Source: a bacterium
Lineage (GTDB): Bacteria; UBP18; UBA7526
Direction: 5' to 3'
NCBI GenBank assembly: GCA_030615855.1
Contig: JAUWYL010000001.1
Coordinates: 139,008 to 203,007 of the forward strand
Length of the DNA: 64,000 bases
In this document: positions 15,854 through 63,945 of the stretch, in pieces
Layout of the letters: each line of letters opens with the position of its first letter
How positions within the stretch are numbered: the first letter of the stretch is position 1
Notes under the pieces: model-generated
Seen by the model: the letters and a program-made list of their open reading frames with translations, nothing else
Told to the model about the DNA's origin: nothing
Databases searched by the model: none
Program-made: the position numbers and the translations under genes

Positions 15854-16804
15854 GTGAAAATAATCTTTATGGGGACTCCAGAGTTTGCCTGCCTCCCTCT
15901 TTTAGCTTTAATTAAGAGTAAACATGATATCATAGGAGTAGTCACTCAGCCGGATCGGAAGAAGGGAAGAGGGATGAAGATTTCTTTCTCTCCAGTTAAG
16001 GAGTTGGCCTTAAGGAATAATCTGAATATCTATCAACCATCAAATATAAATAACCCAGAGTTTATTAGAACCTTAAAAGAAATCTCTCCCGACCTAATTA
16101 CCATTGTGGCCTTTGGCCAGATTTTATCTAAAGAGATTCTAAGATTACCAAAGTATGAATGTATCAACCTTCACCCTTCTTTACTTCCCAAATATAGAGG
16201 CGCCTCACCCATTCCTGCTGCTATTCTCACTGGGGAAGGGAAGACCGGGGTGACCACCTTCTATCTGAGCGAGGAGGTGGATAGCGGAGATATCATATTG
16301 CAGAAAGAAGAAGGAATTAGGAAAGATGATACCACCGTCACATTAAGTAAGAGATTAGCCGAGACGGGAGCAAATTTATTGATAGAAACCATCGATAAGA
16401 TTGAGAGGAAAGAGGTACCGAGGATTCTTCAGGATAAAGAAAAAGCTACCTCTGCCCCGAGATTGAGGAAAGAAAACGGGCTCATAGATTGGAAGAAGTC
16501 CGCCCCTCAGATAGAAAGGCTCGTTCGGGCTATGGACCCCTGGCCCGGAGCCTATACTCATTTTGCAGGAAAATTATTGAAGATTTGGAAGGCAGAAATC
16601 GCATATCGCATATCGCATATCGCATATCGCAAATTACAACCAGGAGAAGTGGCAGATATTACAAAGGAGGGAATGGTCGTGGCCTGCGGAGAAGGGTTCT
16701 TATTAGTTAAGGAGGTTCAGCCTCCAGGCAAGAAGAGGATGAGTGCCTCTTCTTTTGCTTCAGGATATAGAATAAAGACAGGCAGTATCCTAGGAGGTGA
16801 ATGA
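15854..16804 (+). CDS. fmt: methionyl-tRNA formyltransferase
   Basis: Formyltransferase N-domain IIGVVTQPD...HPSLLPKYRG. It contains an in-frame heptamer tandem repeat (16598-16633). Confidence 0.85.
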   Translation: MKIIFMGTPEFACLPLLALIKSKHDIIGVVTQPDRKKGRGMKISFSPVKELALRNNLNIYQPSNINNPEFIRTLKEISPDLITIVAFGQILSKEILRLPKYECINLHPSLLPKYRGASPIPAAILTGEGKTGVTTFYLSEEVDSGDIILQKEEGIRKDDTTVTLSKRLAETGANLLIETIDKIERKEVPRILQDKEKATSAPRLRKENGLIDWKKSAPQIERLVRAMDPWPGAYTHFAGKLLKIWKAEIAYRISHIAYRKLQPGEVADITKEGMVVACGEGFLLVKEVQPPGKKRMSASSFASGYRIKTGSILGGE

Positions 16805-17478
16805 TGGGTTTCTATAGTTCTTATCTCATTCTCCTTCCTGCTCTTATTTTAGCTCTCTATGCCCAGAATAAGGTGAGAAGCACCTATCAGAAGTATTCTA
16901 AAGTCGCTTCCCGAAGAGGATTGACCGGAGCCCAGACGGCAAGAAGTCTTTTGGATGAGAACGGATTGAACAACATCAAGATTGAAAAAATTCCAGGAAA
17001 GTTGACCGACCATTATGACCCAAGAAGTAAGGTTTTACGCCTTTCTGCTCCCATCCACGATAGTGCTTCTCTATCTGCCTTGGGAATTGCGGCCCATGAG
17101 ACGGGCCATGCCATTCAGGATTCAAGGGATTATCTTCCTCTCAGGATTCGCCATGCCATCTTTCCTGCTACTGCCCTGGGAACAAATCTTGCCTTTCCTC
17201 TATTTTTCATCGGCTTCTTATTCGGTGGCCGTCTTTTGATGAACCTCGGTATTCTATTCTTTGCTGCTGCGGTTATCTTTCAGATTATCACCCTGCCCGT
17301 AGAGTTCAATGCCTCAAAGAGAGCATTAGTCTTGCTTGAAGAAGGGAACTATTTAGAAAAAGAGGAGATTTCTGGGGCGGACAAGGTCCTCTCTGCTGCT
17401 GCCTTAACTTACTTAGCTGCCACGGCTATGGCGGTAATGCAGCTCCTTCGCCTCTTGATTCTACGACAAAGCAGATGA
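16801..17478 (+). CDS. YugP-like membrane zinc metallopeptidase
   Basis: HETGHAIQ zinc motif in a membrane protein with the YugP-like N-terminus. Confidence 0.6.
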   Translation: MMGFYSSYLILLPALILALYAQNKVRSTYQKYSKVASRRGLTGAQTARSLLDENGLNNIKIEKIPGKLTDHYDPRSKVLRLSAPIHDSASLSALGIAAHETGHAIQDSRDYLPLRIRHAIFPATALGTNLAFPLFFIGFLFGGRLLMNLGILFFAAAVIFQIITLPVEFNASKRALVLLEEGNYLEKEEISGADKVLSAAALTYLAATAMAVMQLLRLLILRQSR

Positions 17479-18419: not shown

Positions 18420-18482
18420 TAAATTGCAAAGTGCCTGCCTGTCGGCAGACAGGCAAAATTAGCAATGCAAAACGGGATAGTA

Positions 18483-18572
18483 AAATCAAAAATCAAAAAT
18501 GAAAATGTAAAATGACAAACCATAAAAAATCAAAGTGTAAAAATCAAAATGACAATGCAAAAATTAAAATCT
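18483..18572. repeat. degenerate 7-nt tandem repeat block (AATCAAA/AATGAAA units)
   Basis: Direct reading of the sequence. Confidence 0.7.
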
Positions 18573-18677
18573 TTGAATTTTGATACGTCGTTTTCATATT
18601 TAATATTTAATCTTTGATATTTTATTTTAGTATGATGTGTAATTTTAATATTTAATTTTTAATATTTGATTTTATAA

Positions 18678-21559: not shown

Positions 21560-21682
21560 CATGATAAGGTTGAAAGAGTGGAATATCGAGTAAAGGCTAC
21601 GTTATTATGAGTTCGGAGTTAACAGTTCGGGGTTCGGAGTTGTTGGGAGAGAAAAATAAATAACAAAAGCTACAATTCTTAT

Positions 21683-21716
21683 CGCAGGAGTCTTAAAAAG
21701 CTCTTGTTTTTATTTT
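21683..21716 (+). terminator. intrinsic terminator, degenerate member of the island-associated terminator repeat
   Basis: cgcaggagtcttaaaaagctcttgtttttatttt, preceded by agctacaattctt. Compare with 34931, 36298 and 40989. Confidence 0.5.
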
Positions 21717-21755
21717 AGGGCAGGATAGAAGAGAGTAATAAGACTTTTTTGGAGT

Positions 21756-22541: not shown

Positions 22542-22687
22542 AGATAAAGAAGATAAAAGGCTCTTTCTTTGCCCCCTAAAATTTCTGAACCGACTTATTT
22601 TCATTCTTCTTTTTATTACGTCCTAACCAAAGTTTTGCCCACAGAGTAACAAGGTTCTGCCCGTAGGGCAGGTTCTTATTTTTAAAT

Positions 22688-22730
22688 GCCCGCCTCTTCG
22701 CCTGCCTGTCGGCAGACAGGGCGGGTTTTT
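22688..22730 (+). terminator. intrinsic terminator containing the GCCTGCCTGTCGGCAGACAGGC palindrome
   Basis: gcccgcc...ggcgggttttt. This is a repeat module shared with 8810-8880. Confidence 0.6.
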
Positions 22731-22874
22731 GCTATAAGCAAAAAACATAAGAATTTGGAAATATGATGTTGAAATTTGCTATAAGGAAATAAAAGGAATC
22801 AAACGTAATTTTCCTTGACTTTTAGAGAGAAGTAGATTATACTGTAAAGTGAATTAACTTGACAGGGGAAAGAA

Positions 22875-23108
22875 ATGGAACTTTCTCAAAGGGTGAGGAC
22901 AAATCTTTTATTCGATTTCTATGGATCGCTATTGACTGAGAGACAGAAGAAGTTTGTCAAATTATACTTCTGTGAAGACCTTTCTTTGGGTGAGATCGCC
23001 CAGAGGTTTAGGATCTCTCGTCAGGCGGTCTATGATACCCTAAAGAAGGCCAGAGAGTCTTTAGAGAAGTATGAGAAGAAGTTGCACTTAACCCAGGAGG
23101 TAAGATAA
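22875..23108 (+). CDS. ylxM: YlxM/UPF0122 family putative DNA-binding protein
   Basis: [13 protein letters not shown]...[19 protein letters not shown] is sigma70-region4-like. ffh is absent between this gene and rpsP. Confidence 0.6.
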
Positions 23109-23416
23109 TGGCAACGGTAATTAGATTGAAGAGGATGGGAACCAAGAAGAAGCCCTTCTATAGATTGGTGGTCACCGATTCCCGGAAGGCGGTGGTTGGA
23201 AAGTACATCGAGGCCCTGGGATACTATGACCCCAGGAAAGAGCCGGCAATAGTCAATATCAATGAAGAGAAGGCATTGGAGTGGTTGAAGAAGGGAGCAA
23301 AACCCTCGGATACTGTGAGGAGTCTCTTTCAAAGAGAGGGGATCTTGCCACGGAGAAGAGGGGAAAGTGGGAAAGTGAGAAAGTGGGAAAAAGAGATCAA
23401 TGCAAATGCAAAATAA
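23108..23416 (+). CDS. rpsP: 30S ribosomal protein S16
   Basis: [22 protein letters not shown]...EALGYYDP. Confidence 0.85.
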
Positions 23417-23553
23417 AAAGAGTATCAGATTACCAGAATACCAGATGGAGAGGGTCAGTTATCAGAGGGTCAGATTGAATCTGAAATCTGATTTCTGAAT
23501 TCTCATTCTGATACTCTGATGTTCTGATAATCTATGATTGAAGGAGGAGCGGG

Positions 23554-23787
23554 ATGAAGGAATTGATTGAGTATATTGCCAAGTCTTTGGTTGATGAAAA
23601 GGATAAGGTAGAGGTGAGTGAGATAGAAGAGGAAGGGGGGGTAACTGTCTTAGAGCTGCGCACTGCGCCTGAGGAACTGGGGAAGGTGATTGGAAAAAGG
23701 GGAAAGATAGCAAATGCCCTGCGCATCCTCCTGAATGCTGCAGCAGCCAAAGCGGACAAGAGGGCCATTCTGAAGATTACAGAATGA
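23554..23787 (+). CDS. KH-domain RNA-binding protein (YlqC-like)
   Basis: GKVIGKRGKIANALR is a KH GxxG motif. Its position between rpsP and rimM is conserved. Confidence 0.75.
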   Translation: MKELIEYIAKSLVDEKDKVEVSEIEEEGGVTVLELRTAPEELGKVIGKRGKIANALRILLNAAAAKADKRAILKITE

Positions 23788-23878
23788 AAGCCTAAATCTC
23801 ACGGGATTTAATTTCCAATACCCAATTTCTAATTTCCAATAAAAACTCAAATGTCAAATTAACAACCAGTGGGAAGGG

Positions 23879-24397
23879 ATGGTACAAAAAGAAAGTTTAG
23901 TAAATATTGGAAGGGTGGTTGCCACTCAGGGGAACAGGGGCGAGGTGAGGGTTATTTCCTTAACCGATTTTCCAGGTAGATTCCAAAATCTGAAGAAGGT
24001 CTATTTGATTCAAGAGGGGAAAGAACCCATTACCACAGAGGTAGAGAGGACCTGGCATCATAAGGGATTTATCATTTTAAAGATCAAAGGTTATGATAGT
24101 ATCAGCCTGGCAAAGGAACTAAAAGGTTCCTTCATTGCCATTCCCAAAGAAGAGAGAATAAAGCTAAAGAGGGACGAGTACTATATCGATGATCTTATCG
24201 GCCTGGAGGTAGAGAGTGATAAGGGGAAGAGATTGGGAAAGATTATTGATGTCATAAAAAATCCAGGCAACGACATCTACGTTGTGAGGAATGATAAGGA
24301 GCTATGGATTCCAGCAACAAAGGAAGTAATCAAAAGGATCGATTTAGAGAATAAGAAGATGACTATTCACATGATGGAGGGATTGGAGAGCCTGTGA
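23879..24397 (+). CDS. rimM: 16S rRNA processing protein RimM
   Basis: [17 protein letters not shown]-terminus and a PRC barrel at the C-terminus. Confidence 0.8.
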
Positions 24398-25164
24398 GAA
24401 TCGACATCTTAACCCTCTTTCCCAACATGGTAAAAGGGCCTCTGAAAGAGAGCATATTGAAGAGGGCCCAGGAAAAGGGTTTGGTGAAGATAAACGTTTT
24501 AGATATTCGCTCCTTTACTCATGATAGACATAGGACAGCAGACGATGCTCCCTATGGTGGGGGAGCGGGAATGGTTTTGAAGCCAGAGCCCATATTTGAG
24601 GCCATGGAATCCATTAAATCAAAAATCAAAAATCAAAAATCAAAAATCAAAGTGATACTGATGACTCCTCAGGGGAAGAGGTTTGATCAGGGGATGGCAA
24701 AGGGATTAGCAAGAGAGAAACATCTGGTCTTTATCTGCGGCCACTATGAGGGAATAGACGAGAGAATAAAGAGAATGGTAACGGATGAGATATCCATCGG
24801 CGATTATGTCCTCACTGGCGGGGAATTAGCCGCCTTAGTAGTCATCGATGCCTTGGTTCGTCTCATTCCCGGGGTCTTGGGGAAGGAAGAGTCTATAATC
24901 TGTGACTCTTTCTATTCTGGTCTCCTGGACTATCCCCACTATACTAGGCCAGGGAAGTATCGGGGAATGAGAGTTCCCAAGGTACTTTTGAGCGGGGATC
25001 ATAAAAGAATCGCCAGATGGAGGAGAAAGGAAGCCCTGAGAAGGACACTAGAGAGGAGGCCGGACCTGTTAAAAGAAATCAAATTATCTAATGAGGATAA
25101 GAGGTTACTAAGAGAGATTAAAGGTCTCCGACCCAGAGGGGTCTCTGACCTGGAGGGAGAATAG
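24394..25164 (+). CDS. trmD: tRNA (guanine37-N1)-methyltransferase
   Basis: RIDILTLFP...YGGGAGMV...GDYVLTGGE. It contains an in-frame AAATCAA heptamer repeat (24616-24651). Confidence 0.85.
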
Positions 25165-27075: not shown

Positions 27076-27117
27076 GGTTTACGGTTAACGGTGTACGGTG
27101 TACGGTAAACGGTCAAC
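27076..27117. repeat. 6 x 7-nt tandem repeat GGTNNAC
   Basis: ggtttac ggttaac ggtgtac ggtgtac ggtaaac ggtcaac. Confidence 0.85.
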
Positions 27118-27134: not shown

Positions 27135-27998
27135 ATGATGGGATTAGCCAAGGTCTATAGTAGTGCAGTACTGGGAATAGATGCCTATTCCGTAGAGGTG
27201 GAGGTAGATATTGCCAAAGGACTTCCCTCATTCAATACCGTGGGTCTCCCCGATGTGGCAGTGAAGGAGTCCAAAGACAGGGTGAAGGCAGCAATAAAGA
27301 ACTCAGACTTTAAATTCCCGACAAAGAGAATCACTGTCAACCTTGCTCCGGCGGATGTTAAGAAAGAAGGCTCTTTATTCGATCTACCCATTGCTTTGGG
27401 AATCTTAGCGGCCACTGGGCAGATTGAGAAGGCGGAATTCAAAAAATATGTTATCTTGGGAGAATTATCCCTGGATGGAGGGATACGCTCCATCCCTGGT
27501 GCCCTGCCCATTGCTCTGGCCGGTCAAAAAGAAGGGAGAGAGGGAATTATTCTTCCTCTGGATAATAGGGCAGAGGCAGCGGTAGTAAAGGGTCTAAATG
27601 TCTATCCTGTGGAGAACCTCTCCCAGACAGTAGATTTCTTAGCGGGAAAGACAGAGATTGAACCCTTCTCCTTAGATTTAGAAGGAGTCTTTGAGAGAGG
27701 GAGAGAATATAAGGTGGATTTTACAGATGTCAAGGGACAGGAACATGCCAAGCGGGCCCTGGAGGTGGCGGCAGCCGGAGGGCACAATGTAATCATGATC
27801 GGTCCTCCGGGCTCAGGGAAGACCATGCTTGCCCGGAGATTTCCTACCATTCTTCCTGATATGACTCTGGAAGAAGCCCTGGAGACAACAAAGATTCATT
27901 CCATCGCTGGCCTTGTGCCTCCTCAGACAGCACTCATCGCCACCCGCCCCTTCAGGAGCCCCCATCATACGGCATCAGATATTGCACTGTTACAATAG
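27135..27998 (+). pseudogene. comM: comM/yifB (Mg-chelatase-like competence ATPase), 5' portion truncated by element insertion
   Basis: N-terminus LAKVYSSAVLGIDAY.VEVEVD...GLPDVAVKESKDRV and the GPPGSGKT Walker A box are present. The ORF ends at ...RSPHHTASDIALLQ-stop, where intact ComM continues LIGGG...IPRPGE. Confidence 0.8.
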
Positions 27999-28002: not shown

Positions 28003-28055
28003 TAAGGTAGAAAAGGTAGAATATCGCATAGAAGCTACATTCTGATGGCGCTTAT
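27998..28055. repeat. island repeat unit copy 1 (GGGGTAAGGTAGAAAAGGTAGAATATCGCATAGAAGCTACATT), abutting the left junction
   Basis: Related copies at 34872-34966, 36246-36336 and 40932-41024. Confidence 0.6.
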
Positions 28056-28246
28056 TGTTACTATATGGTTAGTCAGCACAAAAACTTGACAAAATAGCAA
28101 AAGTGTATTATAATATAAATAACAAATAAAACTTGACAAAGTGTAAAAACCGTGATATGTTATAGGCCACGGGAGTAATTTCCAATAAAACAAGGATTGA
28201 AACTAGGAAAATCTACATTAATAATTATGGTAAGTAGAGGAAAAAC

Positions 28247-29104
28247 ATGAGGCGAGATATACTCTATTTTGGTGCCCCTGATAGTTTCACGCATATAGCT
28301 GCACTGAAAAGATTTGGTCCAAAGTATGACTATAAATCTTACTGGGCTATAGAAAAACTATTTGATGTTATTTTGGCAAATCCTACTAATATAATGGTAG
28401 TGCCTATTGAAAATAGTACTGGTGGAACAGTTCAACGTACTGCTGACGAATTAGTAAGTGATAAATTCGGAAATAGTGATTTGCGTATTCATGAACAACT
28501 GGAATCAAACATAGTTTTGAATTTAATAGGCCGCGAAAAGAATTTATCAAGTCTTAGAAAGATATACTCACATTCATATGCACTTAGATATTGTGAAGAC
28601 TGGTTAAAGGAGACTTTGCCAAACGCAGAAATGATTTTAGTAAATAGTACTTCGGAAGCGGCTATACGTGCAAAAAATAACCGAAAATCTGGTGCAATTA
28701 GTAGCACAAAAGCAGCAAAAACGTATAATTTGAAAATAATAAAAAGGAATATTAGCAAAAACAAAGCAGTTAATGTTACAAAGTTTTATGTTATAAAGAA
28801 AACAGGTAAGAATATTCTAAAACAAAGCAACAGGACTTCCGTTGCTTTTTCCTTGAAAGATAGAATTGGTGCCCTATGCGATGTCCTTGGGATATTGGCC
28901 AATAAAAAAATTAATTTAACTCGAATCATATCTTGTCTCAAATATGACAGTTCAAATAGGAATAAAAAATTAGATAAATATGCATTTCTTATAGAACTCG
29001 AAGGTAATATAGCCCAACAGAAAGTAAAAATAGCTCTTGATGAGTTACAAAGAGCTACCTTGGCTATGCATATTTTAGGTTCCTACCCCACAAGAAAACT
29101 TTAA
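28247..29104 (+). CDS. prephenate dehydratase-like protein (PDT domain + ACT domain), divergent
   Basis: YFGAPDSFTHIAALKRFG...VVPIENSTGGTV and IYSHSYALRYC are PDT-like. VAFSLKDRIGALCDVLGILANKKINLTRI is ACT-like. The TRF motif reads TKF and ESRP is not conserved. Very AT-rich. Confidence 0.55.
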   Translation: MRRDILYFGAPDSFTHIAALKRFGPKYDYKSYWAIEKLFDVILANPTNIMVVPIENSTGGTVQRTADELVSDKFGNSDLRIHEQLESNIVLNLIGREKNLSSLRKIYSHSYALRYCEDWLKETLPNAEMILVNSTSEAAIRAKNNRKSGAISSTKAAKTYNLKIIKRNISKNKAVNVTKFYVIKKTGKNILKQSNRTSVAFSLKDRIGALCDVLGILANKKINLTRIISCLKYDSSNRNKKLDKYAFLIELEGNIAQQKVKIALDELQRATLAMHILGSYPTRKL

Positions 29105-29325
29105 CTGAAAAACAATAATGTAGATGTGGTTACATCTTGACAGCTTTGGCAAGAATATAAATTTTCTTAAAGATATACCTCTCCAAAAATCAGAAGCCCC
29201 TACTCTTCAGAGGGTTCTTTTTATGCCAAAAATCTTTAATAATCCCCGCCAACTCAGGTGGGTTATTTTTTTGTTGAAATGAAATCTTTTTCAATTTACC
29301 GACGAAGAAGGCACAGAAAAAAGTC

Positions 29326-29354
29326 TTGACAAATCAAATATCGTAGTTTATACT
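29326..29354 (+). promoter_or_regulatory. sigma70-like promoter TTGACA-17-TATACT for the 204-aa orphan gene
   Basis: TTGACA at 29326-29331 and TATACT at 29349-29354, followed by SD AAGGAGG and ATG at 29376. Confidence 0.55.
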
Positions 29355-29375
29355 ATAATCAAAAGGAGGCAAAAG

Positions 29376-29990
29376 ATGGCTAAGTTGCCGTTTCCACAAT
29401 TTCTAAGTCGTTATGGAATCAAACTTCTCTTTACTGCTACTCCGGACGTGGTGCCGGGTACGATCATAGACAAGAGAAAGAAAGGGTTCTTCGGCATTGG
29501 AACCCTTAAACAAGTTCTGGGAGGAGGCCCGGCAAAGTGGGCGACCAAACTTCAACCGGGAAATTTGGTCTATGGCACAATAGAACGGGCTCTTAGTCTT
29601 AAAGGCAAAGCGAGCCTAAACGAGTTCGGTGTGGCAATCAGCGGTGGTCTCAGACGCGCACGGTCTGTTACTTTTGAAATCACGGGCGTCAAAGTTCGAA
29701 CATTCAAAACGCAGAGTATGATTACGATATCACCTGCACTCCACAAGCTTCGCAAGTCGAACAAGCAACTTTGGAAAATGGTAAATAATAATTGGATTGC
29801 GGATTATGTTTATTATGCCAGCGAAGCAACGGTGAAGTTCTTCGTTAACGGGGGAGTGAACCTCAAAGCGGATATCCAGAATCGTTTGAAAGTGTCGGGA
29901 GAGGCAGGGGTTCAATGGAAATCCAATCGCAGCTTCACGATAACAAATAACCAAGAAGTACCTTTCGGTTTTAGCGGCTGGAAAGTTTAA
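29376..29990 (+). CDS. hypothetical beta-rich protein, compositionally distinct (GC ~47%, CGN Arg codons)
   Basis: Own promoter and own terminator. Segments with alternating hydrophobic/polar residues (SVTFEITGVKVRTFK, ATVKFFVNGGVNLKAD) suggest amphipathic beta-hairpins. No family recognised. Confidence 0.4.
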   Translation: MAKLPFPQFLSRYGIKLLFTATPDVVPGTIIDKRKKGFFGIGTLKQVLGGGPAKWATKLQPGNLVYGTIERALSLKGKASLNEFGVAISGGLRRARSVTFEITGVKVRTFKTQSMITISPALHKLRKSNKQLWKMVNNNWIADYVYYASEATVKFFVNGGVNLKADIQNRLKVSGEAGVQWKSNRSFTITNNQEVPFGFSGWKV

Positions 29991-30100
29991 GGTTGGTTGC
30001 ACACCTTATCGTCATTCGTTTGTCGGTTACGGTTTTTGACGAACTACGTAACCCCTAAACGAAACGGGCGTCCTGACCGTATTGCGTATAACGAGCAATG

Positions 30101-30133
30101 CAGGAGCCTTTAATGGCTCCTCTTTTTTTGTTT
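30101..30133 (+). terminator. intrinsic terminator GGAGCC-TTTAAT-GGCTCC + T-run
   Basis: Perfect 6-bp stem followed by T9. Confidence 0.7.
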
Positions 30134-30237
30134 TAGAAGCAGGGCGAAGGAGAGATAAAAGGCTTGTTACACTTCCCTGAGTATGCTACAATGTAATTAA
30201 CATCACGAACGAAAATCCACCTGAGAACGGAGGACTA

Positions 30238-30918
30238 ATGACTCGAGTAATGAACAAGCAAAAAAAGATCGATGCATATAATTTTCCTTATACTTTTAAT
30301 CCTTATACTGGATGCCCCTATTGCTGTCACTACTGCTACACCATTAAATCTGCTCTCTGGAGTGCACGATTGAAAAACTGGGGAATAAAACCTAATATAG
30401 CAAAACCGAAACTTGGTGTAGTTCAGAAACTGCAGCGTGATTTACAGGACCTAAAGAATATACAAACCAGATATAAAGAAGTCCAGATAGGAAATTTCTT
30501 TGATCCCTATCCTCCAATAGAACCTAAATTAAAAATTACCAGACAATGTTTGGATGTATTTCGACAATATCCAGACTGGAAAGTCCATCTAGAAACCAAG
30601 TCTCCTCTCATCTTGAATGATATGGACATCATTAAGCAGATGCCGCGTTTTGAAGCGGAAATTACAATCACCACGCTCACACACGATAAGCAATTTGAGC
30701 CGAATGCTCCATCTACAAAAGAACGATTCAACTTAATCAAAGAGCTAAATAATAATGGAATATTTACAAGGGTTATGATTATGCCTATCCTGGAAGGATA
30801 TACCGATGTAAGGGCGATAATACAAAAAGCCACTAGATATGGAGCTAAATCATGGAAATCCAAAGAATTACATTACTTTACTATTAAAGATTTAAAAACT
30901 AGATATAATATTAAGTGA
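30238..30918 (+). CDS. small radical SAM protein, SplB/COG1533-like (DNA photolyase-like radical SAM family)
   Basis: N-terminal NPYTGCPYCCHYCY provides a CxxxCxxC cluster in the context typical of COG1533 proteins. At 226 aa it is short for the family. Confidence 0.5.
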   Translation: MTRVMNKQKKIDAYNFPYTFNPYTGCPYCCHYCYTIKSALWSARLKNWGIKPNIAKPKLGVVQKLQRDLQDLKNIQTRYKEVQIGNFFDPYPPIEPKLKITRQCLDVFRQYPDWKVHLETKSPLILNDMDIIKQMPRFEAEITITTLTHDKQFEPNAPSTKERFNLIKELNNNGIFTRVMIMPILEGYTDVRAIIQKATRYGAKSWKSKELHYFTIKDLKTRYNIK

Positions 30919-31017
30919 TAAGAGTGACGAAGAAAAAAAGCTAAAGGAAATTACACCTGAAATAAATAAAAAAAGCAGGAGCTATTTTGCCCCTGCTTTT
31001 TTATTGCCTGGATAAAT

Positions 31018-31326
31018 CTATTTGAAAATGATAGATACGATTTTAGAAAGCTTCTCTATATCTTTGGTTGATTTGTTCTTAAGAAGTTTGACTATTTCAT
31101 TTCTCGCTTGCTCTTTTTTATTCGTAAAAAGTTCACTGATATCAACCTTTAGACCTTTGGCTATTTTCTCAATATTCTTAAGAGAGGGATTACACTGCCC
31201 TCTTTCTATTAATCCAATATGAGTATAGTGTAAATTAGCCCTTTCCCCGAGTTCCTCCTGTGATAACTTTCGCTCCTTCCTTAAATCCCTTACCCTATTC
31301 CCGAAAATACGATATAGATTACTCAT
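31018..31326 (-). CDS. XRE-family HTH transcriptional regulator
   Basis: LSQEELGERANLHYTHIGLIERGQCNPSLKNIEKIAKGL. It is divergent from the lipoprotein operon. Confidence 0.7.
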   Translation of the reverse strand: MSNLYRIFGNRVRDLRKERKLSQEELGERANLHYTHIGLIERGQCNPSLKNIEKIAKGLKVDISELFTNKKEQARNEIVKLLKNKSTKDIEKLSKIVSIIFK

Positions 31327-31459
31327 TTTTCACCTTCCTTCAACATTATTTTAAAGGTAAAAGGCGAGAATAACCACAGAATAAATTATTTATTTTTCTT
31401 GATTTTAATGAAGATACATAGTATAATAAAAGTAATTGTATTATATGAGGAGGGACACA

Positions 31460-46548: not shown

Positions 46549-47164
46549 ACTACCAGAGTTTAAGAGGAACGTCTTAGAAGTCCTGCGCCAGCCTTTAGAG
46601 GATGGGGGGGTCACCATATCAAGGGCGGTCACTTCTTTATCCTATCCCGCACGGTTCATGCTCACTGCGGCCATGAACCCCTGTCCCTGTGGCTTCTTCG
46701 GTGATCCAGTAAATGAGTGCACCTGTACTCCTCCCAAGATCCAGAAGTATAGATCGAGGATATCCGGACCTTTGCTTGACAGGATCGATCTCCACTTAGA
46801 GGTTCCCCGGGTGAAGTATAAGGAGCTCGCCTCTCAGGAGACGGGAGAGAGATCAGAGGTGATAAGGAAGAGGGTGAACAAGGCAAGGATCATTCAGCAG
46901 AAGAGGTTCCAAGGCCGGAAGGGAATCTTCTGCAATGCCCATATGGAGGCCAAAGAGATTAAGGAATTCTGTAAGATTGGTGAAGAGTCTCAGGATCTCA
47001 TTAAGTTGGCCATTACCCAGTTAGGTCTATCTGCCCGGGCTTACGATAGGATACTGAAAGTCTCCCGAACCATCGCAGATTTAGAGGAAAAACCTGATAT
47101 CGAACCGGCCCATGTCTCAGAGGCCATTGGCTATCGGAGCCTGGACCGCACTCTCTGGATGTGA
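46460..47164 (+). pseudogene. comM: comM/yifB 3' portion (resumes at [32 protein letters not shown])
   Basis: The in-frame translation upstream of the GTG at 46511 continues the ComM consensus [23 protein letters not shown]. The C-terminus reads [15 protein letters not shown]. Confidence 0.8.
46477..46485. repeat. right junction copy of AATAGGGGG
   Basis: See 27994-28002. Confidence 0.5.
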
Positions 47165-47261
47165 ATACACGGATGAGCACAGATTTTAATAACGGATTAC
47201 AGGATGCGCTTCGCTGGCATCCTAGAGAGCATAAATAATTAAGCATTGGCACGGATAAAAC

Positions 47262-50149: not shown

Positions 50150-50521
50150 ATGGTTCTTCATGCTACATTCATTAAAGCGGTTAAGGAGGCCCTGAAGAAG
50201 AAGGGCTGGAGCATGAGAAGGGCAGCCCGGGAGGCGGGTCTTGACTCCAGTTTCCTTTCCAAGGTATTGAGCGGAAAGCGCAACCCCCCCTCAGATGAGA
50301 GAGTAATTATCAGGTTAGCCCAGAAGTTGGACATCGATCCGGATAGTCTGGTTATCTATGCGGGAAGGATTCCCGCAAAGTATCAGAAGGATTTAGAGAA
50401 ACCGGGAGCAATAAGACTGTTAAGCAGAGTTCGTGCCATGCCCGAGGTAGAGGCAGCGCGCGAGAGAGTGAGGAAGGTTAAGAAGGTAGTTAAAGAAGAG
50501 ATGCCGGATGAGCTCCTTTGA
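50150..50521 (+). CDS. small HTH protein
   Basis: GWSMRRAAREAGLDSSFLSKVLSGKRNP is an XRE-like HTH. Confidence 0.45.
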   Translation: MVLHATFIKAVKEALKKKGWSMRRAAREAGLDSSFLSKVLSGKRNPPSDERVIIRLAQKLDIDPDSLVIYAGRIPAKYQKDLEKPGAIRLLSRVRAMPEVEAARERVRKVKKVVKEEMPDELL

Positions 50522-50617
50522 ACACGGATGAGCACGGATAACGATACGGATAGACACAGATAAAGCAAAATGGATGGGTGCCCTGAGGGGCATTTTTTAT
50601 TAGAGGAGGAATGAAAG

Positions 50618-50902: not shown

Positions 50903-51506
50903 ACTTTTCAACGAAATTATTGTCAATTCATAGGGTTTGATGGAGTAGATAATAATTGTATAACCGACTAAAAAAGTTTTTGCTCGAAAGTCTAACGGGG
51001 TAAGCACTGAGGAACTTTGACTTTCCTTCTTATATATGATATTATATTGTAATTACAAGCGTAAGAGTCCCCTAAAGCGGGTCCTACCTCGGCATTTTCT
51101 CTTCGCGGGCCCCTCCGCCCGGTGTAGATCCTCCCACTCATAGAAATCTGCCGAGTCACCCGCATCTTTTAACCAGCATAAAAGTATCACCATGATTATC
51201 TGGGTAATCCGTTGTTTTATCCGTGTAATCTGTGTACCAGGAGGAATAAATGATTAAGAAAAGACCCAAGAGTCCGGAAGAAGAGTATATGAAGGAAGTC
51301 CACGATGAAGAGATAAAAGCAGAGCATGAAGAGTGGCGGGAAGAAGGGGAGATAGAGAAGGAGAAAGAGAAAGAGAAGTTTAAGGATTATCAGAAGGAGA
51401 GAATAAAGAAGGACTATCTTATTAAGAGGCACAGAAAGGAGAAATTTCTGGGTGGAGTGAGGGGGAAGCCCACCCGGGGACCGAGGGGAACCCATAAGTA
51501 AACAGT

Positions 51507-51558
51507 GCAAAATGCAAAATGAAAAATGCAAAATGCAAAATGAAAAATTGAAAAATTT
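51507..51558. repeat. 7-nt tandem repeat GCAAAAT/GAAAAAT, forming the 5' end of the annotated dprA ORF
   Basis: Direct reading of the sequence. Confidence 0.8.
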
Positions 51559-53080: not shown

Positions 53081-55161
53081 TGGTCAAGGCCTTAGTCATC
53101 GTTGAATCACCAGCCAAGGCAAGGACTATAAATAAATTTCTGGGGAAGGAATACCTGGTTAAATCCTCTATGGGGCATATTAAAGACCTGCCCAGGAAGG
53201 GGCTGGGAGTAGATGTCTATAAGAACTTTCAGCCTCACTACCATATCATTCCCAAGAAAGCAAAGACCTTAGAGAAGTTGAAAGAGGTAGCGGATAATAT
53301 GCAGAGGATCTACCTCGCCCCTGACCCGGATAGGGAGGGAGAGGCCATCTCCTGGCACCTCTATAGTGAATTGAAAAAAACCACTAACGACGTAAAAAGG
53401 ATCATCTTTCACGAGATTACCAAAGAAGCTATAGATAAGGCCCTCACCCATCCCAGGGAGATCGATCTAAAATTGGTGAATGCCCAGCAGGCGAGAAGGA
53501 TCTTAGATAGGATCGTGGGCTATAAGATAAGCCCCCTGCTCTGGAGGAAGGTGAGAGGAGGGCTTAGCGCCGGGAGGGTGCAGTCTGTAGCCTTGAGGCT
53601 CATCTGCGAGAGGGAGAAGAAGATTAACTCCTTCAAGCCAGAGGAGTACTGGTCAATTCATACAAAACTTCAGGGGAAGAGTAAAGAAATCTTTGGAGCC
53701 GACTTAGAAAAAATTGAGGATAAAAGGATAAAGATTTTTGATAGACTAAAGGCCCAGGAGATCTCTTCCCAATTAGAGAGGGAGGAATTCTTTCTGAAGA
53801 AGATCGCTAAGAGAGAGAAGAAGAGATTTCCCCTCCCCCCCTTTATCACTGCTACCCTTCAACAGGTGGCAGCAAGGAGGTTTCATTTTTCGGCGAAGAG
53901 GACCATGAGGATTGCCCAACAACTCTACGAAGGCTTAGATATCGGGGGCGGGGAGATGATAGGCCTTATTACCTATATGAGAACTGACTCCTTTAGAGTG
54001 GCTCAGAGTGCTATCCAAGAGGCAAGAGGGTATATCAGGAAGGAGTTTAGTCAGGAGTGCCTTCCTTCCAAGCCGAGGTATTATAGGAGTAGGAAAGGGG
54101 CCCAGGAGGCGCATGAGGCCATCCGTCCCACATCTCTTTATCGCACTCCAGAAAGATTGAAAGAGCACCTGACTATTGAACAGCAGAGGCTCTATAGTCT
54201 AATCTGGAATAGGTTTCTTGCCTCCCAGATGAGAGAGGCCCTATTGGAGAAGAGGACCTTCAATATTAGAGCAGGAGAGTTTTCTCTATCCTCTTCTGAT
54301 TCCCAGGTGAGATTTAAAGGATTCCTTTCTCTCTATCCAGAAGATAGGATTTTTAAGGAAAAGCTCCTGCCCGCCCTGGAAGAGAAGGAGACCTTAAAAT
54401 TATTAGAGGTTCTTCCTAGCCAGCACTTCACTCAGCCTCCTCCCCGCTACTCAGAGGCCAGCCTCATCAAGGCCCTGGAGGAGGAAGGGATCGGTCGCCC
54501 CTCAACCTATGCCTCAATCATGGAGACCATCAGGAGCCGGGACTATGTTGAGAGCCATAAGGGAAACTTCCATCCCACTTCCTTAGGGGAGACGGTTATT
54601 GAACTACTGGTCAAGAGCTTTCCCGATATCTTAAATGTCCGGTTCACCTCCCAGATGGAGGATAGGTTAGATAAAGTAGAGGAAGGAAGGGAGAACTGGA
54701 TAGACCTCTTGCACTCCTTCTATGGCCCCTTCGCCTCTGACCTCTCCCGAGCCCAGAGGGAGATGAGATATGTAAAGAAGGAACTTGAAGAGAAGACAGA
54801 TAAGATCTGTGAGAAATGTGGCTCGCCCATGGTCATAAAACATGGCCGTTTTGGAAAATTCTTAGCCTGTTCCAACTTCCCTAAATGCAAGAATTCCCGA
54901 CCACTCACTCTGGAAATAAGATGTCCTGGGAAGGATTGTAATGGAGAAATAGTCCAGAGAAGGACCAAGAAGAGAAGGACCTTCTATGGCTGCAGTAACT
55001 ATCCAGAGTGCGACTTCTTTTCCTGGGATAGACCAGCAGGTAAAGGTTGCCCGGAATGCGGCTCTTTTTTAGTTGAAAAATATAGTAAGAGTAAAGGAAG
55101 ATATCTTAAGTGTGCCAATAAAGAATGTTCTTACAGTGAACAAGTAACAGTGAACAAGTAA
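53059..55161 (+). CDS. topA: DNA topoisomerase I with C-terminal zinc ribbons
   Basis: TOPRIM LVIVESPAKA, an active-site Tyr region, and C4 zinc ribbons CEKCGSP...C, CPGKDC, CPECGS. Confidence 0.9.
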   Translation: MGRRLGLMVKALVIVESPAKARTINKFLGKEYLVKSSMGHIKDLPRKGLGVDVYKNFQPHYHIIPKKAKTLEKLKEVADNMQRIYLAPDPDREGEAISWHLYSELKKTTNDVKRIIFHEITKEAIDKALTHPREIDLKLVNAQQARRILDRIVGYKISPLLWRKVRGGLSAGRVQSVALRLICEREKKINSFKPEEYWSIHTKLQGKSKEIFGADLEKIEDKRIKIFDRLKAQEISSQLEREEFFLKKIAKREKKRFPLPPFITATLQQVAARRFHFSAKRTMRIAQQLYEGLDIGGGEMIGLITYMRTDSFRVAQSAIQEARGYIRKEFSQECLPSKPRYYRSRKGAQEAHEAIRPTSLYRTPERLKEHLTIEQQRLYSLIWNRFLASQMREALLEKRTFNIRAGEFSLSSSDSQVRFKGFLSLYPEDRIFKEKLLPALEEKETLKLLEVLPSQHFTQPPPRYSEASLIKALEEEGIGRPSTYASIMETIRSRDYVESHKGNFHPTSLGETVIELLVKSFPDILNVRFTSQMEDRLDKVEEGRENWIDLLHSFYGPFASDLSRAQREMRYVKKELEEKTDKICEKCGSPMVIKHGRFGKFLACSNFPKCKNSRPLTLEIRCPGKDCNGEIVQRRTKKRRTFYGCSNYPECDFFSWDRPAGKGCPECGSFLVEKYSKSKGRYLKCANKECSYSEQVTVNK

Positions 55162-55217
55162 CAATTGTTCAATGTTCATTGTTCAATGCTACTTAATATC
55201 ACCTTACAGGAGATTAA

Positions 55218-58365: not shown

Positions 58366-58539
58366 ACCACAGTGACCAGTGAACGGTGAACTGTGTTACT
58401 TAAGGTTAACGGTTTACCCGTCCCTCATTTTATTCGGGACTGTCTACCATTTACCGTTTTTCACCGTACACCGTAAACCGTAAACTAATTATTGCTAATT
58501 ACTGATCACCGATTACTCCGACTGAAAGGAGGGACAAAG

Positions 58540-58710: not shown

Positions 58711-58713
58711 AGT

Positions 58714-58820
58714 CATCCGTCAGTCTGTCTCTCCGTCAGCCCGTCCATTTAGCGACGGAATATACGGATTCGGTGGAATAGACGGAATAGACGGAATAGA
58801 CGGATGCGACGGATTAGCGG
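58714..58820. repeat. degenerate tandem repeats (CCGTCAG / GGAATAGAC units)
   Basis: Direct reading of the sequence. Confidence 0.7.
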
Positions 58821-58826
58821 AGTAGG

Positions 58827-60651: not shown

Positions 60652-61794
60652 ATGATTAAGAGAAAAATTGTTGTGCTGGGCTCCACCGGCTCAGTGGGAA
60701 TAAATACCCTAAGGGTCGTTGAGAGTTTAGGGGATAGGTTTCAAGTCATTGGCCTGACAGCAAGGAAGAATATCAATCTCTTAGAGAAGCAGATAAGGAA
60801 GTTTCATCCTAAGATAGTGGCCTTAGTAGATAAAAAAAGCGCCCGAGAATTAAGAGGGCGCTTTAAAAGTATGAGGGTCATGAGCGGCCAAGAGGGAGTA
60901 ATCGAAGTCGCCCGATTAAAGGAAGCGGACCTGGTCGTCTCGGCCATTGTTGGCACCAGCGGTTTAATGCCCACCTTAGAAGCCATTAACGCAATAAAGA
61001 AAATCGCCTTGGCCAATAAGGAAGCCCTGGTCATGGCTGGGGAGATCGTGATGCAAGAGGCCCATAAGAGGGGAGTAGAAATTCTTCCCGTGGACAGCGA
61101 ACACTCGGCCATCTTCCAGTGTCTGAAGAAAGAAGGAAGGGGAAAGGTTTCGCGCATCATCCTCACCGCCTCTGGTGGACCATTCCTGGACTGGAGCCTC
61201 TCGAGATTAAAGTCGGTTACCCCCCAGGAAGCTCTCAAGCATCCCACCTGGGAGATGGGAAAGAAAATTACTATTGACTCTGCTACATTGATGAATAAGG
61301 GTTTGGAGGTGATCGAGGCCTATCATCTGTTTGGAATCGATATCGATAGGATAGAGGTAGTTATTCATCAGGAAGCGATTATCCATTCCCTGGTAGAATT
61401 CGTTGATGGAACGATGCTTGCCCATTTAGGAACCCCGGATATGCGTCTCCCCATTCAGTACGCTTTGACCTATCCAGAGAGGCTTCCCACCCCCCTAAAG
61501 AAACTGGATCTTACTAAAATTAGAAGACTCACCTTTCAGAAGCCAGATACCAAGAGATTTCCTTGTCTAAAATTGGCCTATGAATCAGCCAGAATAGGGG
61601 GAACGGCACCAGCGGTTCTGAATGCTACCAATGAGATTGCCGTCTCCCTATTCCTGAAGAAAAAGATCGGGTTCATGGAGATTCCGAGAATGATTAAGAA
61701 GGTATTGAATAGGCATAAGCCCATCAAGAACCCCACCCTAAGTAAAATTCTGAAGGCAGATGCCTGGGCAAGAGAGGAAGCCTTAAGATGTTAA
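60652..61794 (+). CDS. dxr: 1-deoxy-D-xylulose 5-phosphate reductoisomerase
   Basis: IVVLGSTGSVG... Confidence 0.9.
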   Translation: MIKRKIVVLGSTGSVGINTLRVVESLGDRFQVIGLTARKNINLLEKQIRKFHPKIVALVDKKSARELRGRFKSMRVMSGQEGVIEVARLKEADLVVSAIVGTSGLMPTLEAINAIKKIALANKEALVMAGEIVMQEAHKRGVEILPVDSEHSAIFQCLKKEGRGKVSRIILTASGGPFLDWSLSRLKSVTPQEALKHPTWEMGKKITIDSATLMNKGLEVIEAYHLFGIDIDRIEVVIHQEAIIHSLVEFVDGTMLAHLGTPDMRLPIQYALTYPERLPTPLKKLDLTKIRRLTFQKPDTKRFPCLKLAYESARIGGTAPAVLNATNEIAVSLFLKKKIGFMEIPRMIKKVLNRHKPIKNPTLSKILKADAWAREEALRC

Positions 61795-62906
61795 CTACAA
61801 TTATTGCCACCCTTATTCTTCTCGGCCCTACCATATTCTTCCATGAATTGGGCCATTTTCTTCTGGCCAAGAAGGCCGGCATTCGAGTAGAAACCTTTGC
61901 CTTGGGCTATGGCCGCAAGCTCTTTGGTTTTAAAAAGGGAGAAACGGAGTATATCATTCCCTGGTTCCCATTAATAGGGGGATATGTTAAATTAGCGGGC
62001 ATGGATCCTGGTGAAATAACCGGTGCTCTCTGGGAGTTCAACTCCAAATCTATTCTTCAGAGACTATCTGTCTTAGTATCTGGCCCTCTGATGCATTGGC
62101 TTTTGGCTTTCCTGGTTTTTACCACTATGTTTCTCTCCGGGGTTCCAGAATATCTTATTTCTCTTGAAGTAAGAGAAGTCTTAAAGGCTTCTCCTGCCCA
62201 AGAGATAGGGCTACAACCAGGCGATAGAATCTTCAAGATAAATGGAGTGGTAAAAAAAGATTTCTCCGAATTACGCACTCTCATTACTGAGCATCCAAGA
62301 GAAAAGATAATATTATCCATTATTCATGAAGGGAAAGAAATAACTAAAGAAGTTATACCCAGGCTCAATCCCAAGACAGGCAAAGGAGAAATTGGGATAG
62401 CCATAACACCCTTCCCAGAAAAAGAGATAGGAGTTAAAAAATACAATATTTTTCAGGCAATAGAAAGAGGGGTAAGACAGACAATCAATGTAACTCTTTT
62501 AATCCTCATCACCTTCTGGAAACTTATCACTCTTAAGATATCGGTTAGAAATCTAGCCGGCCCCCTATGGATCCCCCATATGGCAGGAGAGGCTGCCCGC
62601 CTGGGCCCATCATCCTTCCTTCTCTTCTTCGCCTTCTTAAATATTAATGTGGGAATAATCAACCTTCTTCCCATTCCCCTTCTGGATGGCGGTCATGTCC
62701 TCCTTTTAGGCATTGAGAAGATCAAGGGTTCCCCCTTAAATGACAGGGGAAGAGAGATTGCTCAGAAAATAGGAATATTCATTGTCGCTATGCTGGCAGC
62801 CCTTGTTTTCTCTAACGATATCAACAGATGGGTTCAGTTAAAGAAAATAGAAAAAGAAAAGTCTATTATAGAGAGAGTTCTTCCTCATGAAGAGAAGGCG
62901 AAGTAG
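61788..62906 (+). CDS. rseP: RIP zinc metalloprotease RseP-like (site-2 protease)
   Basis: HELGHFLLAKK HExxH motif, PDZ, and the LDGG motif. Confidence 0.8.
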   Translation: MLTTIIATLILLGPTIFFHELGHFLLAKKAGIRVETFALGYGRKLFGFKKGETEYIIPWFPLIGGYVKLAGMDPGEITGALWEFNSKSILQRLSVLVSGPLMHWLLAFLVFTTMFLSGVPEYLISLEVREVLKASPAQEIGLQPGDRIFKINGVVKKDFSELRTLITEHPREKIILSIIHEGKEITKEVIPRLNPKTGKGEIGIAITPFPEKEIGVKKYNIFQAIERGVRQTINVTLLILITFWKLITLKISVRNLAGPLWIPHMAGEAARLGPSSFLLFFAFLNINVGIINLLPIPLLDGGHVLLLGIEKIKGSPLNDRGREIAQKIGIFIVAMLAALVFSNDINRWVQLKKIEKEKSIIERVLPHEEKAK

Positions 62907-63945
62907 AAGAGTCAAGATAGGCAAAGTAGCTGTTGGTGGTGGGGCACCAGTCTCTGTCCAGTCCATGACCAAGACGGATACCAGCGATATAAAAGCAACG
63001 GTCAAACAGATTAAAGAGTTGGAAAGAGAGGGCTGTGAGATCATAAGGGTTGCCATTCCAGATAAAGAGGCAGCAAAAGCGATCCCCAAGATAAAGAAGA
63101 GAATAAAGATTCCCTTAATTGCCGATATTCACTTCGATTATCGGTTGGCCCTGGAAGCCCTGGAAAATGGAGCGGATGGCATAAGGATAAACCCCGGGAA
63201 TATCAGAGACAAAAAGAGAATTATCCAGATTGTAAGGAAAGCAAAAAAGAAGAGAATTCCCATAAGGATCGGAGTAAACTCCGGCTCTCTAGATAGAAAG
63301 AGATATAAAGGACCCTTAGCCCAAGCCATGGTGAGGAGCGCACAAGACTCTATAAAGATATTTGAGAAGCAAAAATTCTACGATATTATTATCTCTTTGA
63401 AAGCATCAGATGTTCTAACTACAATAAAAGCCTATAAATTAATGGCTAAGAGATGTAACTACCCCTTTCATCTGGGAATAACGGCCACCGGCCTTCCTCC
63501 CTTAGGAATAATTAAATCTGCTCTGGGCATTGGAAGCCTATTGCTTGAGGGAATTGGGGATACTATCAGGGTCTCCCTCACTGGCCCACCCCAAGAAGAG
63601 GTGAGGGTAGGCTATGAGATATTAAGAACTTTAGAGTTACGAAAAGGGATGGAGATACTTGCCTGCCCCACCTGTGGTCGCTGCGAAATAGACCTGATCA
63701 AGATAGCAAAAGAAGTTGCAAAAAAGGTTTACGGTGAACGGTTTACGGTTAACGGTAAACGGCCACTGAAAGTGGCCATCATGGGCTGTGTAGTGAATGG
63801 CCCGGGAGAGGCCAGGGAAGCAGATATCGGCATAGCAGGAGGAGAGAAGATAGGAGTAATCTTCAGAAAAGGCAGAGTAATAAAGAAGGTAAAAGAGAAA
63901 GATTTAGTCTCTACACTCTTGGCTGAGATAGAAAATATGATGTAA
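62887..63945 (+). CDS. ispG: 4-hydroxy-3-methylbut-2-enyl diphosphate synthase with in-frame heptamer-repeat insertion
   Basis: GcpE motifs, including C-terminal CPTCGRC. The repeat ggtttac ggtgaac ggtttac ggttaac ggtaaac lies at 63726-63762. Confidence 0.85.
   Translation: MKRRRSRRVKIGKVAVGGGAPVSVQSMTKTDTSDIKATVKQIKELEREGCEIIRVAIPDKEAAKAIPKIKKRIKIPLIADIHFDYRLALEALENGADGIRINPGNIRDKKRIIQIVRKAKKKRIPIRIGVNSGSLDRKRYKGPLAQAMVRSAQDSIKIFEKQKFYDIIISLKASDVLTTIKAYKLMAKRCNYPFHLGITATGLPPLGIIKSALGIGSLLLEGIGDTIRVSLTGPPQEEVRVGYEILRTLELRKGMEILACPTCGRCEIDLIKIAKEVAKKVYGERFTVNGKRPLKVAIMGCVVNGPGEAREADIGIAGGEKIGVIFRKGRVIKKVKEKDLVSTLLAEIENMM

Follow-up and report, generated by a model that had tools for sequence, protein, structure and literature searches.

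Seven-nucleotide tandem arrays in spacers and housekeeping genes of an uncultured bacterium of candidate phylum UBP18

Why should the DNA of a sediment bacterium be filled with head-to-tail repeats of 7 nucleotides (nt), and how can units of that length sit inside essential genes such as fmt, trmD, and ispG without breaking the reading frame? The question is raised by a 64,000-nt stretch of contig JAUWYL010000001.1 (GenBank assembly GCA_030615855.1, positions 139,008 to 203,007, forward strand), referred to here as the window. Its source is an uncultured sediment bacterium of candidate phylum UBP18, and the UBP18-related lineage is known solely from metagenome-assembled genomes (MAGs). With a probability of roughly 0.6, the arrays are long simple-sequence repeats (SSRs) that stem from a lineage-wide bias toward slippage or duplication of 7-nt units, passed through a selective filter and shuffled by recombination. 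They are a known bacterial repeat phenomenon in a new host lineage and not a new kind of element.

Heptanucleotide arrays in the window and its clade

Period 7 stands apart from the other periods scanned. Perfect runs (at least 12 matched positions at lag p, periods 3 to 21, 20 dinucleotide-preserving shuffles) number six at period 7, zero or one at every other period, and 0.0 in the shuffles. At the looser threshold of 17 matches in 21 positions (periods 4 to 18, with shuffles as the control), degenerate arrays number 13 at period 7, eight at period 14, which is its double, and at most three elsewhere, again with 0.0 in the shuffles. In backbone spacers, which total 4,956 nt, autocorrelation is highest at lag 7 (0.324), followed by lag 8 (0.307), compared with about 0.28 at other lags; with the called arrays masked, the spacers keep a residue of 0.300 and 0.297 at these lags, coding sequence has no residual signal, and the inserted island described below has none at all. 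Head-to-tail units of 5 to 11 nt beyond the expectation from composition, which characterize long SSRs, are therefore present in the window, and the heptanucleotide is the dominant unit length both there and in relatives. At least 15 different units occur within the window, which argues against a single sequence-specific element.

A first-pass annotation made from the letters alone had described 7-nt tandem repeats as pervasive and had placed heptamer arrays, in frame, in fmt, trmD, ispG, udg, and a lytic transglycosylase gene. Tandem Repeats Finder (TRF), which returns 74 rows for the window (about 20 of period 7 and several more of period 14), recovers each of these heptamer arrays at the same positions, direct reading of the letters agrees, and NCBIfam upholds the gene names (fmt, trmD, ispG, family-4 udg, lytic transglycosylase, comM/yifB, dprA, priA, rpe, and uppS). 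The heptamer observation is thus confirmed; the part that did not hold is the inclusion of CACGGAT-type clusters among the arrays, which is taken up in the last section. The arrays of the window are the following.

10648-10675, minus strand: CACATCC array (GTGGGAT on the plus strand), inside the gene for a spermine-synthase-like membrane protein (8950-11256, minus strand)
11575-11610, plus strand: AGCYACA, 5.1 copies, in the linker preceding the family-4 uracil-DNA glycosylase (UDG) domain, gene 11476-12165
16598-16631, plus strand: ATCGCAT, 4.9 copies, perfect (TRF 100%), in fmt (15854-16804), encoding IAYRISHIAYR
18482-18673, plus strand: AAAATCA/AAAATGA array followed by TTTAATA/TTTGATT arrays, in the spacer from a PASTA-domain protein gene to rpe; the nest folds as one long hairpin (z = -2.1)
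21605-21641, plus strand: GAGTTCG, 4.7 copies, degenerate, intergenic (TRF 69% matches; under the 17/21 scan threshold)
23345-23555, plus strand: nest of 7- to 8-nt arrays (GGGAAAGT, TACCAGAN, NNTCTGA), at the rpsP 3' end and in the rpsP-KH spacer; the nest folds as a long hairpin (z = -3.4)
23810-23840, plus strand: AATTTCC, 4.4 copies, intergenic, upstream of rimM (TRF)
24616-24651, plus strand: AAATCAA, 5.1 copies, perfect (TRF 100%), in trmD (24394-25164)
27076-27117, plus strand: GGTNNAC, six copies, immediately upstream of the comM ribosome-binding site
47299-47329, plus strand: TACTGGT, 4.4 copies, perfect (TRF 100%), in the signal or transmembrane segment of the lytic transglycosylase (47262-47915)
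51506-51556, plus strand: TGCAAAA/TGAAAAA, six copies (TRF 6.1), overlapping the dprA start region
55133-55188, plus strand: short ACAGTGA/ACAAGTA and TGTTCAA arrays, at the topA 3' end and in the spacer before an xerC-like gene (TRF)
58458-58487, minus strand: GGTNNAC-family array (ACCGTAA on the plus strand), in the frr-ferredoxin spacer
63726-63762, plus strand: GGTNNAC, 5.3 copies, in ispG (62887-63945), encoding VYGERFTVNGKR

The concern that such arrays are an assembly or sequencing artefact arises because the window derives from a short-read MAG, but the chance of this is next to negligible. The arrays are shorter than one read, every array-bearing gene remains in frame, and the Logan assembly of run SRR14872660, a separate assembly, is 100% identical to the window across 61450-64000, the ispG array included. 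A strain 98% identical to the window and deposited as a separate record (L041) has the same trmD array, (AAATCAA)x5, at equal copy number, and the transglycosylase array is found in two other MAGs as well. For the arrays that were checked, an artefact is refuted.

Close homologues of TrmD, Fmt, and IspG (75 to 98% identity) are confined to metagenome proteins. The nearest species-representative genomes are "bacterium UBP18_UBA7526", which NCBI places among unclassified candidate phyla, and two cold-seep MAGs, with TrmD identities of 84 to 86%; these relatives share the gene order of the window. A metagenome scan yielded few close relatives, all on short contigs. The relatives are cited here by sequence label, and three of these (L001, L087, and L094) are pieces of one MAG, GCA_030619985.1 (CSMAG_2758).

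The same period-7 scan, applied to eight sequences of the clade with the island excluded, finds 39 arrays in 160 kilobases (kb), compared with nine in the 567 kb of 37 trmD loci from other phyla, a roughly 15-fold difference; four of the nine control arrays sit in one locus. Two deeper relatives, with Fmt at 69% and TrmD at 73% identity, are free of arrays over 41.7 kb. The window also contains an internal control. An island of 18.46 kb at 28003-46465, of low GC content (0.34 to 0.44), splits comM/yifB into an N-terminal part (27135-27998) and a C-terminal part (about 46466-47164) and has a large serine recombinase gene (44944-46548) at its end; three relatives are without it, and their sequence runs uninterrupted across the comM junction. 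The period-7 scan finds no arrays in the island against 3.8 expected (P about 0.012), which fits a process needing residence time in the host. The heptad excess therefore belongs to the resident DNA of this sub-clade, though it is not unique to it: perfect heptad arrays fill the same ispG loop in a Nitrospirota-labelled MAG (L092, 1243-1311) and in a metagenome bacterium (L093, 1396-1433), so that heptad-filled loops reach beyond the UBP18 sub-clade. The former also has, between two genes, a perfect array followed by its own inverted copy (6195-6245).

Placement, frame, and turnover of the coding arrays

Genes contain 25 of the 39 clade arrays (0.19 per kb), and the other 14 lie in or at the edges of spacers (0.49 per kb), so that array density is 2.6-fold higher outside genes than inside; coding arrays amount to about one per five genes. 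Within proteins they occupy indel-prone loops, linkers, or signal peptides. The array residues of TrmD, Fmt, and IspG coincide with gaps in the alignments to PDB entries 3ky7, 3tqq, and 3noy, respectively, and in the AlphaFold model of TrmD the array spans the end of helix 64-76 and the loop ahead of strand 86-91. The udg array forms the linker ahead of the catalytic domain, and the transglycosylase array forms an N-terminal hydrophobic segment. TrmD also has a C-terminal extension of 11 residues (25120-25164), which is not a heptamer array; it is common to L001, is longer in one relative (P0022), and is modeled with very low confidence (predicted local distance difference test [pLDDT] score of 32).

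A heptad is read through all three frames in turn, and coding arrays therefore need stop-free units. On the sense strand the unit consensus is stop-free in 24 of the 25 coding arrays, compared with eight of the 14 outside genes. The exception is the GGTNNAC array of ispG, in which the two variable positions take just those values that avoid TAA and TGA. Every coding array read in the window and in relatives is in frame, and the host genes are housekeeping genes; in these assembled sequences they do not match a phase-variable gene of the neuO type, in which copy number switches the gene on or off.

The first-pass annotation reasoned that arrays inside essential genes must be held to multiples of three units, and several loci bear this out. 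In six genomes the conserved anchors of fmt lie 102 nt apart, and within that stretch some 42 nt (six heptads, 14 codons) have different contents: with (ATCGCAT)x5 in the window, (GAACTCC)x5 in CSMAG_2758 (L087), (AGGCYTC)x4 in L088 and L002, and (AATTACC)x5 in L089; the loop of the deeper relative L090 is non-repetitive. The corresponding ispG segments measure 105 to 108 nt, and a 42-nt fill fits two close genomes, two more distant ones being 3 nt shorter. In the spermine-synthase-like gene there are four CACATCC units in L089 and seven in L087, a difference of exactly 21 nt, and the window array has the seven-unit length with its central 21 nt substituted by the palindrome CCTGCCTCGCCAGCAGGCAGG. 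The trmD site does not follow this rule. It measures 72 nt without an array and 90, 123, 135, and 186 nt with five different units, so that the differences from the 72-nt base are 18, 51, 63, and 114 nt, and the visible coding arrays span 4.4 to 5.3 units; whole triplets of units are thus not what is constrained. The constraint is a net length in whole codons, reached often through three-unit multiples and also through partial units and flanking bases. The description of the arrays as in-frame insertions likewise suits trmD, where the window gains 18 nt over the base, but not fmt or ispG, in which the loop is as long as in relatives.

Comparison of orthologues, which had been proposed for fmt, trmD, and ispG, shows that what changes between relatives is the unit, or its presence, with loop length constant in fmt and nearly so in ispG. 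At all nine sites compared (trmD, fmt, ispG, udg, the transglycosylase gene, the comM-upstream, rpsP-KH, and PASTA-rpe spacers, and the lepB-rnhB junction), sister genomes bear different units or none. Relatives have CAAGCTC, AAGTCCA, CAGGTCG, AAAAGTC, or no array at the trmD site, and TTCAATG (L094), AATTTCC (L092), or CCAGTTA (L093) in the ispG loop; the second of these is also the unit found upstream of rimM in the window. The udg linker is without a clear array in L090 and has CAAAATG in L088 and AAGTCCA in L089; in the transglycosylase gene, L001 and L002 match the window in unit and length, and L003 has GTTCACT. Spacers behave similarly: upstream of comM, L001 has AACCAGT and 8-mer arrays and L002 has no array, the L001 counterpart of the dprA-region array is decayed, and the rpsP-KH region is about 206 nt long in the window, about 20 nt in L001, L002, L042, and L045, and about 45 nt in L003.

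Two gene predictions touch these spacers. The S16 frame of rpsP (23108-23416) extends into the repeat nest, giving a predicted product of 102 amino acids where relatives have 88 to 92 and a spacer of about 20 nt. At the dprA start, each TGCAAAA unit provides an ATG, which yields several candidate starts in different frames, and the annotated start is putative.

Recombination contributes to this turnover. Aligned with CSMAG_2758, the fmt gene of the window has 98.7% identity in the 150 nt on the left side of the loop and 78.9% in the 150 nt on the right side, and this sharp break at the loop points to an imported allele; rewriting of the CSMAG_2758 array in place is weakened as an explanation by the same break. 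Along their syntenic genes the identity of the two genomes varies, over 200-nt stretches, from 0.64 up to 1.00, and the genomes are recombination mosaics between related populations.

Origin of the arrays

In 195 kb of DNA from the clade, the published heptanucleotide units considered (STRR1 to STRR3, TAACTGA, GGGAATC, and others) are never tandem. The single match among the published units, TTTTGAT, is the A-rich trmD unit in reverse complement and is taken as a coincidence. The cyanobacterial short tandemly repeated repetitive (STRR) sequences that Mazel et al. are said to have described in 1990 have the units CCCCAGT (STRR1), TTGGTCA (STRR2), and CAACAGT (STRR3), and even near-matches to these, as to TAACTGA and the other published units, are at chance level. 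The likeness is instead one of general kind, as the first pass had held in calling the arrays STRR-like in an organism that is not a cyanobacterium: in Calothrix and Nostoc, too, whose STRRs are cited in PMC4692102, several tandem 7-nt families are scattered through the genome, often near gene starts, whereas the nearest genomes here are UBP18_UBA7526 and unclassified cold-seep MAGs. The closest parallel is with long SSRs. Heptanucleotides are reported as their commonest class in genomes rich in them, and polymerase slippage has been put forward to explain them (Mrázek, Guo & Shah 2007, via PMC4679880 and PMC4692102), and, as far as those secondary accounts reach, the 5- to 11-nt class resembles the present arrays in its heptad excess, dominant unit of 7, patchy distribution among lineages, and proposed slippage; what differs from that account is the location of 25 of 39 arrays in genes, fmt, trmD, and ispG among them, and a host from an uncultured candidate phylum.

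Other heptad systems share single traits with the arrays. TAACTGA repeats of marine Beggiatoaceae, some cyanobacteria, and Bacteroidetes occur in two to six copies, mostly before start codons, with few copies inside genes at protein termini or linkers, and horizontal spread is suspected by a mechanism not established (MacGregor 2015, PMC4679880). There a single unit dominates and related heptamers are seldom repeated, whereas here units are many, coding arrays are common, and internal loops are used; TAACTGA itself occurs in the 195 kb as 32 single copies and no tandem. Geobacter metallireducens has two families of heptanucleotide elements in four or five tandem units, within and between genes (PMC2700814), and its class MTYCTGA resembles the NNTCTGA units at 23478-23540, but there one GC-rich unit has 49 copies that are read as regulatory, and turnover at orthologous sites is not described. 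In neuO of E. coli K1, protein is made only if the number of units in an in-gene heptad tract is divisible by three (PMC13001214), the same frame arithmetic as in the four- versus seven-unit arrays and the 42-nt segments here; neuO, however, is a phage-borne contingency gene with 3 to 53 units that is turned on and off, whereas here the arrays of essential genes are short and in frame wherever they were read. The G-quadruplex repeats GGGAATC and GGGGAYT of Xanthomonas and Nostoc are abundant near gene ends, and GGGAATC is under-represented in Xanthomonas genes (PMC4692102); the units here are, in contrast, mostly A/T-rich or mixed.

The favored explanation has three layers. The generator would be a bias toward tandem duplication and loss of 7-nt units, with some of 8 to 10 nt, through slipped-strand mispairing in replication or repair. 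MutS copes with loops of up to about 4 nt, so that heptad-size loops would be expected to evade mismatch repair. New arrays would arise everywhere and survive only in spacers, protein loops, linkers, termini, and signal peptides, and in coding sequence the filter would pass those arrays that are free of stops in all three frames and of a net length in whole codons, attained by three-unit steps, 42-nt segments, or partial units. Related populations would then exchange alleles by homologous recombination, and array-bearing segments would now and then be copied to new sites, which would leave sister genomes with different units at the same site. The period-7 enrichment and its confinement to the lineage, the placement, the frame and stop filter, and the turnover are direct observations, and the shuffling is observed in part, through genome mosaicism and dispersed copies of array-bearing segments; that slippage generates the arrays, and what sets the unit length at 7 nt, we infer.

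Several observations weigh against this explanation, above all against local slippage acting by itself. Slippage of that kind does not predict the GGTNNAC pattern, in which five positions of the unit are fixed and two are free at three loci. It is hard for drift and slippage to produce perfect five-unit arrays of unrelated units and the same length in genomes that are about 93% identical, and recombination explains one such case. Single-unit slips in essential genes should be lethal, which bears on how coding arrays could grow, and nothing in the window gives a reason for a unit length of 7. Among 20 Fmt proteins of the clade, which fall into six loop classes, loop class is independent of relatedness: identity is 0.828 within classes and 0.823 between them (P = 0.24), and the nearest neighbor has the same class in just three of 20. 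Identical units also recur at non-orthologous sites across the clade, in six pairs against 0.85 to 0.90 expected (P = 0.003 and 0.0004).

This last excess is also part of the case for arrays, or small hairpin elements, being chiefly copied from locus to locus in the manner of miniature inverted-repeat transposable elements, ectopic gene conversion, or template switching. In L041 the lepB-rnhB junction contains a 356-nt insert that is identical at 71 of 72 nt to a different locus of the window (18480-18552), 27053-27100 matches 58462-58509 in inverted orientation (48 nt, 81%) with about 20 nt of non-array flank included, the intergenic nests fold as long hairpins, and the array and inverted copy in L092 are of the same tenor. 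Such copying is nevertheless unlikely as the main source. Coding arrays have no shared flanks, and inverted partners (at least 12 of 14 positions) accompany none of 26 coding arrays and four of 15 intergenic ones, of which one clearly beats shuffled controls; an array joined to its inverted copy, once considered as a general rule for intergenic arrays, thus holds for some nests only. Terminal inverted repeats, target-site duplications, and a transposase were not seen, in a small sample of two dispersed copies with shared non-array sequence, and unit recurrence inside the window alone is at chance level (four near-identical pairs against 3.05 expected, not significant). The first-pass suggestion that arrays spread by some mechanism other than triplet-constrained slippage gains some support from unit recurrence, the dispersed copies, and the fmt swap at a recombination breakpoint. 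Somewhat less credible than copying is a role for the heptads as binding sites for a protein with a 7-nt footprint on single- or double-stranded DNA or on RNA, kept for regulating transcription or translation of the downstream gene, as with the cold-shock-type and S1-type proteins proposed to bind TAACTGA repeats (PMC4679880). Arrays at 27076-27117, 51506-51556, 23478-23540, and 18592-18667 do end 5 to 40 nt before a ribosome-binding site or start codon, a placement also noted for TAACTGA repeats and Nostoc heptamers, and GGTNNAC keeps its five fixed positions at three loci; yet in a compact, co-directional genome nearly any spacer directly precedes a start codon, the units are unrelated and number at least 15, sister genomes have another unit or none in the same spacer, and 25 of 39 arrays are inside genes.

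Selection at the protein level, for variable or heptad-repeat segments or through a diversity-generating system that writes them, would account for loops that vary among close relatives while the remainder of the protein is conserved. It is very improbable: the repeats are perfect at the DNA level, synonymous positions included, arrays of this kind also occupy non-coding spacers, the proteins concerned are housekeeping enzymes of the cytoplasm, and the window has neither a reverse transcriptase gene nor a template repeat. A bolder proposal, and a quite doubtful one, is that a dedicated or strongly biased process beyond ordinary slippage keeps overwriting unconstrained DNA, the 42-nt loops of essential enzymes included, with heptads from a shared and mobile repertoire of units. 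It might use template switching in a 7-nt register or heptad-primed repair synthesis, and the repertoire would move between loci and even between lineages, as the ispG loop of the Nitrospirota-labelled MAG might illustrate. If that were true, this process and not recombination would have left the two signatures of recurring units and of loop classes that do not follow relatedness.

Other repeats of the locus and implications of the arrays

The ATCCGTG/CACGGAT-type clusters that had been grouped with the heptamer arrays are real and enriched but phased at 10 nt, and they form a separate dispersed spacer motif. CACGGAT (with CACAGAT) has 18 occurrences against 3.3 expected, in both orientations relative to transcription (seven minus, 11 plus), mostly as direct pairs 10 nt apart. 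Neighbor distances are 10 nt in 13 of 29 cases, which is the mode, and 7 nt in only three; one cluster (58751-58825) has period 9. The clusters are as follows.

15522-15650, plus strand: largest cluster, mostly pairs spaced 10 nt, not period 7
1778-1817, minus strand: CACGGAT cluster
3876-3923, minus strand: CACGGAT cluster
12175-12214, minus strand: CACGGAT cluster
47166-47256: CACGGAT cluster
50519-50570: CACGGAT cluster
51219-51236, minus strand: CACGGAT cluster
58751-58825: CACGGAT cluster

The motif is enriched in L087 (0.45 per kb, compared with 0.086 per kb in the control loci), and the other relatives are at or under the control rate. Phasing by one helical turn suggests a putative site for a DNA-binding protein or an element like the repetitive extragenic palindromic (REP) sequences; CsrA-type GGA sites were rejected as an explanation in view of these mixed orientations.

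Further repeats of the window are of other kinds, and a scan with Rfam at gathering thresholds and a tRNA scan gave no matches in the window. An intergenic repeat of about 140 nt in two copies (1940-2077 and 7246-7382, 81 to 96% identical) has the palindromic core TCTTCGAAGA and no Rfam match. A dispersed element at 8806-8875 and 22675-22764, and also at 18433-18453 and 12815-12835, contains the hairpin GCCTGCCTGTCGGCAGACAGG; part of it matches a spacer of L002, and the CACATCC array of gene 8950-11256 encloses a related palindrome. The island has four copies of a repeat of about 80 nt (30057-30137, 34887-34967, 36255-36335, and 40945-41025) that ends in a terminator-like hairpin and T-run (CGCAGGAGTCTTAAAAGGCTCCTCTTTTTTTG), and the backbone has a related copy that is shorter, at 64 nt (21671-21734); it also codes for an N6/N4 DNA methylase (36425-37567), a DUF5677 protein, a prephenate dehydratase, and a radical-SAM protein. 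Relatives have small inserted genes, lacking at the corresponding window positions, for 23S rRNA intervening-sequence proteins (PF05635) and GIY-YIG nuclease-like proteins.

L088, 8445-8837 and 11841-12131: small inserted genes
L089, 8465-8761: small inserted gene
L094, 11163-11480: small inserted gene
L090, 5484-5756: small inserted gene

What is unusual in this known phenomenon is the number of units, the high share of arrays in housekeeping genes, and the documented turnover at orthologous loops. The arrays extend heptanucleotide-rich genomes to an uncultured candidate phylum of marine sediment, and the comparison of orthologues shows how such repeats live in essential genes: in indel-tolerant loops, by an arithmetic of heptads and codons, and with turnover between sister species. 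They are also lineage-specific indels in the marker genes trmD, fmt, ispG, and rpsP, and as such can upset alignments, gene calling (as at the dprA start), and the phylogenomic placement of these MAGs. With an array-rich clade beside an array-free sister lineage, the question of why the unit is seven becomes approachable.

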